Shown: positions 2,464 through 10,684 of the stretch, in pieces
Layout: each line of letters starts with the position of its first letter
How positions within the stretch are numbered: the first letter of the stretch is position 1
Source: a virus
Taxonomy: Duplodnaviria > Heunggongvirae > Uroviricota > Caudoviricetes
Direction: 5' to 3' (one strand)
Virus record (IMG/VR): IMGVR_UViG_2671180643_000008
Length of the DNA stretch: 10,684 nt
Translations under genes and position numbers: made by a program
The notes under the pieces: model-generated
What the model saw: only the letters and a program-made list of their open reading frames with translations
What the model was told of the DNA's origin: nothing
Databases searched by the model: none

Positions 2464-2973
2464 GTGGCTACGCAGACTGAAGTTGCCAGGCATTTAAGTC
2501 TGACCGATCGCCAGCTTCGCAGATTGCAGAAATTGCCGGGTGCCCCGATATCAAATAAGCGAGGGCAACTGGATCTGGATGCCTGGCGCGATTTTTACAT
2601 ATCGTATCTGAGGAGAAGTAAAAACGATGTGCCTGATGGCGATAGCGAAGACGACTATGAGGAGAAATTGCTTATTGCCAGATGGGAACTGACAGCAGAA
2701 CAGGCTGTTACACAGCAGTTAAAAAATGAGGTGTCAAAAGGAAAACTTATTGACACCGGGTTCTGTATTTTTGCCCTCAGTAAGCTGGCAATGGCGTTAT
2801 CCAGTACGCTTGATTCCATCCCTTTATCCATGCAGCGACAGTTTCCTGATTTAACACCGCGCCATCTTGACCATCTGAAAACCCTTATTGCTAAGGGGGC
2901 AAATCAGTGTGCGCGGGCAGGGGATAAATTACCGGATTTACTCGATGAATATATCAGAGCAACAACTGAATAA
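2464..2973 (+). CDS. nu1: Terminase small subunit (gpNu1 family)
   Basis: The C-terminal two-thirds (...TGFCIFALSKLAMALSSTLDSIPLSMQRQFPDLTPRHLDHLK...LPDLLDEYI) is strongly similar to lambda gpNu1 as recalled; the N-terminal HTH region (MATQTEVARHLSLTDRQLRRL...) is divergent. GTG start at 2464 follows an in-frame TGA at 2458-2460 and an AGG-rich SD. The 3' end overlaps the A start by 29 nt. Confidence 0.85.
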   Translation: MATQTEVARHLSLTDRQLRRLQKLPGAPISNKRGQLDLDAWRDFYISYLRRSKNDVPDGDSEDDYEEKLLIARWELTAEQAVTQQLKNEVSKGKLIDTGFCIFALSKLAMALSSTLDSIPLSMQRQFPDLTPRHLDHLKTLIAKGANQCARAGDKLPDLLDEYIRATTE

Positions 2974-4874
2974 TATGATGGCTGCCGTTTCGGTTGCGCT
3001 GCAGCCTCTGGTCAGGGTTGTACCAATGACGGCAGTTGAATGGGCTGATCAAAATTATTATCTGCCTAAAGAATCCTCATACGGTGAGGGCGAATGGAAA
3101 ACGCTGCCATTCCAGATCGCCATCATGAACAGCATGGGGAATGATCAGATCCGCACTGTTAATCTGATTAAATCTGCCCGTGTTGGCTATACAAAGATGT
3201 TGCTGGGGGGTGGTCGGGTATTTTATTGAGCATAAATCCCGAAACAGTCTGCTTTTTCAGCCCACGGATTCTGCCGCTGAAGATTTTATGAAGTCTCACG
3301 TGGAGGCGACGATTCGGAACGTGCCATGCCTGAAAGACCTTTCCCCATGGCTGGGGCGTAAACATCGTGACAATACTCTCACGCTGAAACGCTTTTCATC
3401 GGGCGTCGGTTTCTGGTGCCTGGGCGGCGCTGCCGCCAAAAACTACCGTGAAAAATCCGTGGACGTGGTCTGCTATGACGAACTTTCCTCGTTCGAGCCG
3501 GATGTCGAAAAAGAGGGCTCGCCAACCCTGCTGGGGGATAAGCGTATTGAGGGGTCGGTGTGGCCAAAATCCATTCGCGGCTCGACGCCTAAAATCAAAG
3601 GCACCTGCCAGATCGAAAAAGCCGCTAACGAGTCGGCGCATTTTATGCGTTTTTATGTGCCCTGCCCGCACTGTGGGGAGGAGCAGTATCTGAAATTTGG
3701 CGATGAGTCCACGCCTTTTGGGCTTAAATGGGAGAAGGACAGCCCTGAAAGTGTTTTCTACCTCTGTGAACATCATGGCTGCGTGATCCATCAGTCTGAA
3801 CTGGACCAGAGCAACGGGCGGTGGATCTGTGAAAACACGGGCATGTGGACCCGTGACGGTCTGACGTTTTTCAGCGCCCGGGGTGATGAAATTCCGCCGC
3901 CGCGCTCCATCACGTTCCATATCTGGACGGCGTACAGTCCGTTCACCACCTGGGTACAGATTGTCTATGACTGGCTGGATGTACTGAAAGATCCCAACGG
4001 CCTGAAAACCTTTGTGAACACCACGCTGGGCGAGACCTGGGAAGAGGCCGTGGGCGAAAAACTCGATCACCAGGTACTGATGGATAAGGTGGTGCGTTAC
4101 ACGGCGGCGGTGCCTGCCCGGGTGGTTTATCTGACGGCGGGCATTGACTCGCAGCGAAACCGTTTTGAGATGTATGTCTGGGGATGGGCTCCGGGAGAGG
4201 AAGCCTTTCTGGTGGATAAAATCATCATTATGGGGCGTCCTGATGAGGAAGAGACGCTGTTACGTGTGGATGCGGCGATCAACAAAAAATACCGCCATGC
4301 GGATGGCACCGAAATGACTATTTCCCGTGTCTGCTGGGACACCGGGGGGATCGATGGTGAAATTGTTTATCAGAGATCAAAAAAACACGGTGTTTTCCGG
4401 GTGCTGCCGGTAAAAGGCGCATCTGTCTATGGCAAGCCGGTGATCACCATGCCAAAAACCCGCAATCAGCGGGGCGTGTATCTGTGTGAAGTGGGAACGG
4501 ACACCGCAAAAGAAATTCTCTATGCCCGTATGAAAGCCGATCCCTCGCCTGCGGATGAAGCCACGTCGTATGCCATCCGTTTTCCTGATGATCCGGAGAT
4601 TTTTTCGCAGACAGAGGCGCAGCAACTGGTGGCGGAAGAGCTGGTGGAGAAGTGGGAAAAAGGAAAGATGCGTCTGCTGTGGGATAACAAAAAGCGGCGT
4701 AACGAAGCGCTGGACTGCCTGGTGTATGCCTACGCGGCATTACGTGTGTCCGTGCAACGCTGGCAGCTTGATCTGGCTGTACTGGCAAAATCCCGGGAAG
4801 AAGAGACGACCCGGCCAACCCTGAAAGAACTGGCAGCGAAGCTGTCCGGAGGAGTGAATGGTTACAGTCGCTGA
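2945..4874 (+). pseudogene. A: Terminase large subunit (gpA family), interrupted by a +1 frameshift at a G6 run (3205-3210)
   Basis: ATG 2945 gives MNISEQQLNNMM...TAVEWADQNYYLPKESSYGEGEWKTLPFQIAIMNSMG...VGYTKMLLGGGRVFY and stops at 3227-3229. The remaining roughly 550 aa (WGVVGYFIEHKSRN...CPHCGEEQYLKFGD... to TGA 4872-4874) are in the next frame. Both parts are colinear with lambda gpA as recalled. Removing one G from GGGGGG restores K-M-L-L-G-V-V-G-Y-F-I-E-H-K. Confidence 0.8.
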
Positions 4875-5064
4875 ACTGCAGGCGCTGCGTCAGGCGCGCC
4901 TTGATTTATTAACCGGTAAACGGGTGGTGTCTGTCCAGAAAGATGGACGAAGAATTGAATATACGGCGGCCTCTCTGGATGATCTTAACCGGGCGATCAA
5001 TGATGCGGAGTCAGTGCTGGGGACAACAAGCCGCCGCCGTCGTCCGCTGGGAGTGAGGTTATGA
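4858..5064 (+). CDS. W: Head-tail joining / head completion protein gpW
   Basis: The 68-aa product MVTVAELQALRQARLDLLTGKRVVSVQKDGRRIEYTAASLDDL... resembles lambda gpW (recalled motif TGKRV-x-VQKDGRR). GGAGGA SD. Overlaps the A stop and the B start (ATGA). Confidence 0.8.
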   Translation: MVTVAELQALRQARLDLLTGKRVVSVQKDGRRIEYTAASLDDLNRAINDAESVLGTTSRRRRPLGVRL

Positions 5065-10390: not shown

Positions 10391-10404
10391 ACGCAGGGTG
10401 AATT

Positions 10405-10599
10405 ATGGCGATAAAAGGGCTTGATCAGGCGATTGAAAATCTGAGCCGGGTTCGTAAAAACGCCATTCCGTCGGCTTCAGCAATGGCTATTAACCGCGTG
10501 GCTACAACGGCGATTAATCAGTCTTCATCACAGGTTGCCCGGGAGACCAGGGTGAGCCGGAAACTGGTAAAGGAACGGTCCAGTGTAGTGGCACACTAA
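10405..10599 (+). pseudogene. Z: Tail completion protein gpZ, 5' fragment only (64 of about 190 codons); truncated by an insertion
   Basis: [58 protein letters not shown] matches the lambda gpZ N-terminus as recalled. After codon KER (ending at 10578) similarity ends, and all three forward frames hit stops by 10612. Confidence 0.6.
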
Positions 10600-10684
10600 A
10601 TTTGGCCACCTGATGAAAGGTGATATTCTCACCACAACACAAAACAGGTGACTTAATGAACAAGAAAACCAAACGAACCTTCAC
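10584..10684 (+). mobile_element. Probable left end of an IS3-family insertion sequence (terminal inverted repeat plus start of orfA), continuing beyond the window
   Basis: The sequence TGTAGTGGCACACTAAATTTGGCCACCTGA... starts with TG, has an internal GTGGC/GCCAC dyad, and resembles my recollection of IS911-type left ends. AGGTGA SD, then ATG 10656 encoding MNKKTKRTF..., typical of IS3-family OrfA N-termini (compare IS911 MKKRNFSAEFK). It begins exactly where Z homology stops. Only about 100 bp are visible. Confidence 0.4.

Follow-up and report, generated by a model that had tools for sequence, protein, structure and literature searches.

Recent decay of the terminase gene A and the tail gene Z as the likely cause of a defective lambdoid prophage segment in Escherichia coli

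The DNA analyzed here is a stretch of 10,684 nucleotides, IMG/VR virus record IMGVR_UViG_2671180643_000008, and the whole stretch is referred to as the window. Coordinates are window positions on the plus strand unless another strand is given. Our analysis indicated that the window is the late half of an ordinary lambdoid prophage, recently broken by two lesions, a frameshift in the terminase large subunit gene A and an insertion sequence (IS) in the tail gene Z, and that the damage likely represents recent neutral decay. An earlier note on the window had proposed a defective prophage that is retained for its accessory genes. The first part of this proposal was supported, in that the window is prophage DNA in which two lesions inactivate genes. 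The second part, retention for accessory genes, was not supported.

Over its full length, the window is identical to CYBI01000078.1, a contig of the draft E. coli assembly GCA_001283725.1, and the depositor's protein records for this contig give the organism as Escherichia coli. It is a whole short-read contig, which begins in a phage lysozyme gene and stops 101 bases into a repeat, the IS. At least 80% of the window is held by about 1126 of 5426 complete E. coli genomes. The nearest complete-genome matches are Shiga-toxin E. coli strains of the Centers for Disease Control and Prevention and other isolates; the best of them reached 98.7% identity over positions 1–10583, and none was identical to the window. 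The closest complete-genome relative, E. coli 2013C-4830, was used as the reference. Among deposited phages, the PhiR12 group comes closest with 94.9% identity, together with phage 21, for which the value is 94.6% from gene A onward.

The gene map was based on the RefSeq annotation of the best relative, the records of phage 21 and PhiR12_1, Pfam, and protein-by-protein comparison. The gene order R-Rz/Rz1-PerC-DUF3950-cos-Nu1-A-W-B-C-D-E-FI-FII-Z agrees with the RefSeq prophage annotation and with phages 21 and PhiR12_1. This order, the matching protein families and a cos site directly upstream of Nu1 are those of a lambdoid late region of the lambda/phage 21 type. Judged by its gene content, the window spans the region from lysis to head genes in an E. 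coli prophage of the lambda/phage 21 type. The contig covers the late region only, and the relatives of the window lie in chromosomes.

Gene A (2945..4874) is a pseudogene by a +1 frameshift, as the earlier note had claimed. It consists of an N-terminal open reading frame (ORF) at 2945–3229 and a C-terminal ORF that ends at 4874. The frame from the ATG at 2945 closes after 94 codons at a TGA stop (3227–3229), and the remainder of A is read in a different frame up to 4874. Alignment with 2013C-4830 placed the lesion at 3205..3210, where the window has six G residues (G6) and its relatives have five (G5). When one G was deleted, a protein of 642 amino acids with no other lesion was obtained, and this restored protein shared 98.0% identity with its 2013C-4830 counterpart, 96.7% with gpA of PhiR12_1 and 93.6% with gp2 of phage 21. 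The depositor labeled the N-terminal fragment as “terminase large subunit of prophage CP-933O”. NCBIfam returned no model for the A and Z fragments.

The distribution of the A and Z::IS products was looked up in a collection of 15 billion proteins. The exact 94-residue A product was found on three contigs: the window, contig CXZX01000063.1 of GCA_001277675.1 (L002), and a contig (L004) in an independent Logan project assembly of run ERR134521. Relative to the window, L002 has 7 substitutions over 10,583 bases and L004 has 2 over 7917 bases, in both cases with no gap, and the positions of the L004 substitutions are not those of L002. The window, L002 and L004 thus represent three haplotypes produced by two assembly pipelines, each of them with G6. 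Because three assemblies with distinct patterns of single-nucleotide polymorphisms (SNPs) share the frameshift, and one of them comes from a different assembler, it is very probably a real mutation, rare and inherited within a small clade. The earlier note had also considered that the frameshift might prove to be a sequencing error, and this was not borne out across the assemblies.

We also used an 86-base probe over the G tract. It matched 2023 places in 1280 complete E. coli genomes; all full-length matches had a one-base gap, and 99% identity was reached by two partial matches only. The G6 allele was not found among the approximately 1280 complete E. coli genomes that carry the stretch, in which G5 is invariant. 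Programmed frameshifting in A was rejected on account of this invariance and because A genes of the lambda type consist of one ORF.

G6 is also called in GCA_026134715.1 (a 4.9-Mb contig), where two prophages (L009 and L010) have a related 94-residue product with the same frameshifted tail. This assembly was rejected as independent support for G6, because nearly every phage gene in it is fragmented. From this pattern of fragmentation, the G6 call there is indel noise, that is, a misread G5 tract. The case is a warning for pseudogene calls at the G tract of A.

The G tract could also be a contingency site, prone to slippage, at which packaging competence is turned on and off, so that the frameshift would be a reversible switch. 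One-base changes in homopolymers revert readily, and the rest of A is undamaged. However, the complete genomes gave no sign of recurrent switching, a tract of five or six G is short for a contingency locus, and the sole further instance of G6 is the noisy assembly GCA_026134715.1. We regard a switch of this kind as extremely unlikely.

The second lesion lies in gene Z, which encodes the tail completion protein. The 5′ part of Z (10405..10583; 59 of about 177–191 codons) is colinear with the intact Z genes of L002, 2013C-4830 and PhiR12_1 to position 10583, where homology to all relatives ends; in the alignment with L002, the break follows ...GGTCCAG. The remaining 101 bases of the contig (10584..10684) form the left end of an IS3-family element (ISEc31-like) with a full length of 1258 bp. 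They begin with TGTAGTGGCACAC and are 100% identical to the left ends of full copies, many of them in complete E. coli genomes. The disruption of Z by an insertion, which had been claimed before, is therefore upheld, with a junction present in one assembly.

The IS element is present in 2088 of 5426 complete genomes. RefSeq annotates it as an IS3 family transposase with programmed frameshift, and a group with 95% identity to it carries the annotation ISEc31 family. Full copies are 1258 bp long with the ends TGTAGTGG...CCACTACA. The terminal repeats were read by eye and with fuzzy matching, since the automated repeat search missed them. A 3-bp duplication was found in 11 of 13 simple insertions of full copies in complete genomes with both flanks comparable. 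The features of the IS3 family (TG...CA inverted repeats, a length of about 1.25 kb, orfA/orfB with programmed frameshift and a 3-bp duplication) were found on full copies elsewhere, and the window holds the first 101 bases. The Z::IS fusion ORF encodes 64 amino acids, runs to 10599 and is on record in the source contig only. A simple insertion would continue past the right end of the IS with the rest of Z and the CAG duplication: CAGACTGAAACGG.

L002 has the frameshift in A but an intact Z, with U, V, G, T and the tape-measure gene H after it. It matches the window to 10470 save three scattered SNPs, and then 4 differences occur within 57 bases (10471–10527). Its Z is a different allele (177 amino acids). 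The end of L004 at 10470 and the divergence of L002 from 10471 indicate a mosaic joint or a repeat/assembly fork inside Z.

Several points weigh against a recently decayed prophage with both lesions. The G6 call and the Z/IS junction both come from assemblies only, and the junction occurs in a single short-read assembly. Both the end of L004 and the divergence of L002 lie 113 bases before the junction, and the IS-bearing copy of Z could come from a second lambdoid prophage in this genome. The window does not extend to the integrase, repressor, replication and remaining tail genes of the isolate. In addition, the neutrality of the lesions is assumed.

If these points are taken further, the extra G could be a homopolymer error, the Z-IS junction a chimeric contig end, or both, and the prophage would then be intact. 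This would be in accord with the position of the lesion within a homopolymer, with the same G6 call in GCA_026134715.1, whose genes are fragmented as is typical for long-read indel noise, and with a short-read contig that ends in a repeat while its sister contigs fork at 10470/10471 and the junction is seen in one assembly only. However, three assemblies with different SNP patterns and from two pipelines have G6 with no other indel in 7.9–10.6 kb, and a contig that extends 101 bases into the IS requires junction-spanning reads. An artefact of this kind is therefore highly unlikely.

The most likely course of events is as follows. Replication slippage would have added one G to the tract (G5 to G6) and split A after codon 87 in one small lineage. 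A prophage with a split A would be unable to cleave its own DNA and package it. At a later time, and solely in this isolate, an IS3-family element of the ISEc31-like kind would have transposed into codon 60 of Z. We infer this order because L002 has the frameshift with an intact Z and Z::IS is found only in the source contig. The lesions appear to be recent because the frameshift allele is confined to two or three contigs and the IS junction to one. Both would be ordinary, recent and most likely neutral decay in a resident prophage, and the remaining genes, cargo included, may be intact because too little time has elapsed for further damage. The G6 tract could revert.

The element carries an inactivating lesion, very probably a real one, in a gene needed for the particle. 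From its sequence, it is defective in the narrow sense that it is without its own terminase and, if the junction is rightly placed, without its own tail completion protein.

We next consider the accessory genes. A PerC-family regulator gene of the PchABC type (1441..1755; Pfam PerC, PF06069, E 3.8e-44) is present as cargo (a “moron”), and a DUF3950 gene of the YlcI-YnfO family lies beside it (1837..2061, minus strand; Pfam DUF3950, E 1.3e-17; NCBIfam YlcI_YnfO_N). The Pfam match of the PerC protein spans 89 of 90 profile positions, and its exact sequence is the UniRef “PchABC family transcriptional regulator”, found on at least 1000 contigs; NCBIfam has no model for it. Both the PerC domain and the identity to PchA/B/C place it in the PerC/Pch family. 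The gene is intact, as the earlier note had stated, with a full-length frame of the same length as in relatives. The DUF3950 protein is also full length and is 100% identical to that of relatives. PhiR12_1 has the same Rz and Nu1 flanks without the PerC and DUF3950 genes, and because both are missing between the same flanks, the two behave as an inserted cargo module.

In enterohaemorrhagic E. coli (EHEC), pch genes are located on prophage elements, which are usually cryptic, and they are activators of the LEE (locus of enterocyte effacement), a type III secretion island (PMC3378721). With an intact PerC gene, the element could supply an LEE activator if the host has the LEE.

Defective prophages can reportedly be retained for useful genes (Bobay, Touchon and Rocha in 2014). 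Selection might thus keep this prophage for its PchABC-type activator and its DUF3950 gene, and the virion functions would be allowed, or even favored, to decay. This domestication would fit with cargo genes that are intact and identical to widespread alleles, with the role of Pch regulators, typically on cryptic prophages, in activating the LEE and type III secretion in EHEC (PMC3378721), and with a frameshift that was kept while three isolates diverged by at least a few SNPs.

However, no differential decay was found, because 12 further phage genes are as undamaged as the cargo. Outside the two lesions, all structural genes are full length, with 93–100% protein identity to phages that were deposited as phage genomes. 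The frameshift allele was seen in two or three contigs and in zero complete genomes, and the lesions together are confined to one to three assemblies. Moreover, the PerC and DUF3950 cargo is also found in more than 1000 complete genomes, in prophages with A and Z annotated as intact, so its presence is not tied to decay. Outside the joint in Z, the three isolates differ by 5 SNPs, of which 3 are nonsynonymous, 2 are synonymous and none lies in the cargo, and these are too few, without statistical power, to detect selection or to discriminate between selection regimes. Domestication is therefore unlikely, and it is on these grounds that retention for the accessory genes was set aside in favor of recent neutral decay.

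The 12-base cohesive-end sequence cosN, GGGCGGCGACCT, is intact at 2269..2280 (exact match; 0.04 expected by chance). It is identical in PhiR12_1 and 2013C-4830 and equals bases 1–12 of the phage 21 record. A cosB-like region follows with three copies of CCGGACATG at 2318–2326 (minus strand), 2378–2386 (plus) and 2408–2416 (plus), where 0.10 matches were expected. These repeats are conserved in PhiR12_1, and an R3/R2/R1 layout is annotated in phage 21, by analogy with which they are presumed to be Nu1 binding sites. The terminase small subunit gene Nu1 (2464..2973; Pfam Phage_Nu1) is intact, and its product is 100% identical to Nu1 of PhiR12_1 and 2013C-4830 and 40% identical to gp1 of phage 21. 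Because cosN, the repeats and Nu1 are conserved, the packaging substrate and the small subunit appear to be in order, and only the large subunit is broken. The packaging specificity module (Nu1 and cosB) is unlike that of phage 21, yet the head genes from A onward are phage-21-like, which makes the region a mosaic of packaging specificity and head genes.

With cos, the cosB repeats and Nu1 intact, a compatible terminase from another prophage could package the element in trans, so that it would still be mobilizable by a helper prophage. Asadulghani et al. (2009) have studied the defective prophages of EHEC O157:H7 Sakai. They found that most of its lambdoid prophages carry frameshifts, deletions or IS insertions, yet many were excised, replicated and packaged (PMC2669165). 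Sp4, whose nu1 is disrupted by an IS, was still packaged, probably by the terminase of Sp14, whose cos is near-identical (PMC2669165). The earlier description of the element as not a viable virus thus holds in part: the defect exists in cis, but complementation by co-resident prophages has been published for O157 Sakai (PMC2669165).

The window resembles these Sakai prophages (Sp4, Sp11, Sp14 and others; the CP-933 series in EDL933; PMC2669165) in several respects. They likewise have the lambda-type late order, carry cargo including pch between the lysis cassette and cos, retain cos, and are inactivated by frameshifts and IS elements, including in the terminase (Sp4 nu1::IS). In contrast, the window comes from a different host strain and has another lesion pair (the A frameshift and Z::ISEc31-like), and it covers the late half only and is known from sequence. 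Phage 21 and PhiR12_1 have the same head gene set as the window, both with intact A and Z. PhiR12_1 is without the PerC and DUF3950 insert between Rz and cos, and its Nu1 and cos are identical or near-identical to those of the window, whereas the Nu1/cosB specificity of phage 21 differs (40% identity). In E. coli K-12, the prophages Qin and DLP12 (the ynfO/ylcI-nohA/nohD region) likewise have a DUF3950 YlcI/YnfO gene just upstream of cos and a Nu1 homologue. However, these are heavily deleted, long-known remnants, whereas the window keeps a complete head gene set with only two point lesions.

The element is therefore a member of the long-described pool of slightly defective lambdoid prophages with pch-type regulators, which is already known. 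For annotation, gene A should be treated as a genuine pseudogene and not as an error to correct, and Z as disrupted by an IS. Beyond annotation, the significance is small: it is one more slightly damaged lambdoid prophage in pathogenic E. coli.

The head genes were compared with those of the relatives. W (head-tail joining protein, 4858..5064), B (portal protein, 5061..6653), D (head decoration protein, 8185..8532) and FII (head-tail joining protein, 10037..10390) were assigned by Pfam order and protein comparison. C, the S49 prohead protease/scaffold gene with nested Nu3 (6643..8148), encodes 501 amino acids as in phage 21, to which it is 98.6% identical. The major capsid protein E (8590..9618) is 99.7% identical to gpE of PhiR12_1, and the packaging protein FI (9670..10044) is 99.2% identical to that of phage 21. 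All seven genes are intact and full length against their relatives, in accord with the earlier statement that most head genes are intact. The W, B, C, D, E and FII proteins are 92–99.7% identical to those of phage 21 and of PhiR12_1 alike; for FI, identity is 99% with phage 21 but only 44% with PhiR12_1. The products of the intact genes (Rz, Rz1, PerC, DUF3950, Nu1, W, B, C, D, E, FI and FII) match their counterparts exactly in length. Proteins outside A and Z are 100% identical to those of L002, except Rz (two changes).

We observed the same IS 1 bp from the Z site of the window in a Qin-like prophage of E. coli 19KM2326N (L005 12023/12024). The Z of this prophage is lambda-type and about 79% identical to that of the window, and all its genes from Z to the tail fibre are missing. 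The two insertions appear to be independent because the junction-proximal bases differ. A shared IS target motif, “AACGG-CC”, was dropped, since the first sample had been ranked by flank similarity and eight evenly spread copies had no consensus. The two IS hits at one spot in Z, a sample of two, may represent a hot spot or a coincidence. That the lesions mark recurrent weak points at which lambdoid prophages are disabled, with the G tract of A toggling packaging and the spot in Z hit twice by an ISEc31-like element, is a very doubtful generalization.

Upstream of the PerC gene there is an AT-rich non-coding stretch (976..1440) with about 30–35% GC in the composition profile, and relatives have no annotated gene in this spacer of about 460 bp. 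It is presumed from its position and composition to hold the PerC gene's own promoter. A promoter scan upstream of PerC gave weak matches only, and shuffled sequence contained more promoter-like sites. A hairpin, AAAAAGCGAC-TTTAGTG-GTCGCTTTTT, was read from the sequence at 1792..1818, where the PerC and DUF3950 genes converge. It has a perfect 10-bp stem with A5 and T5 on its flanks; the consensus scan missed it. This hairpin is likely to be a bidirectional terminator. Its own spacer and the terminator-like hairpin suggest that the cargo could be an autonomous transcription unit.

The DUF3950 gene had been called a ribbon-helix-helix (RHH) gene with an intact frame. The frame is full length, but only DUF3950/YlcI-YnfO matches were obtained for its protein. 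The protein has a strand-like RNIRFP motif followed by two predicted helices split by G-S-G. A single-sequence AlphaFold model placed helices at residues 19–30 and 37–57 after an extended N-terminus, with low confidence (mean predicted local distance difference test score, pLDDT, of 57). A PDB sequence search with the protein gave a chance match only (E 1.6). The RHH fold is a plausible label that would be compatible with this strand-helix-helix pattern.

The lysis genes had likewise been described as intact. Rz (508..975; spanin; Pfam Phage_lysis, E 1.9e-48) is intact and full length against its relatives, and so is the Rz1 lipoprotein gene nested in it (728..913; Pfam Rz1, E 1.7e-21; 100% identical to relatives). 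However, the start of the contig truncates the lysozyme gene R to its final 56 codons (2..172; 100% identity with the C-terminus of lysozyme WP_001003118.1 in 2013C-4830), and the window contains no holin gene to check. Between R and Rz there is a small ORF of 37 amino acids (393..506), which has no Pfam match and is 100% identical to a RefSeq hypothetical protein. Rz has two nonsynonymous changes specific to the window, F64L and P100S (positions 697 and 805), and the latter change is silent in the nested Rz1 frame. At both sites, L002 and 2013C-4830 have the other base.

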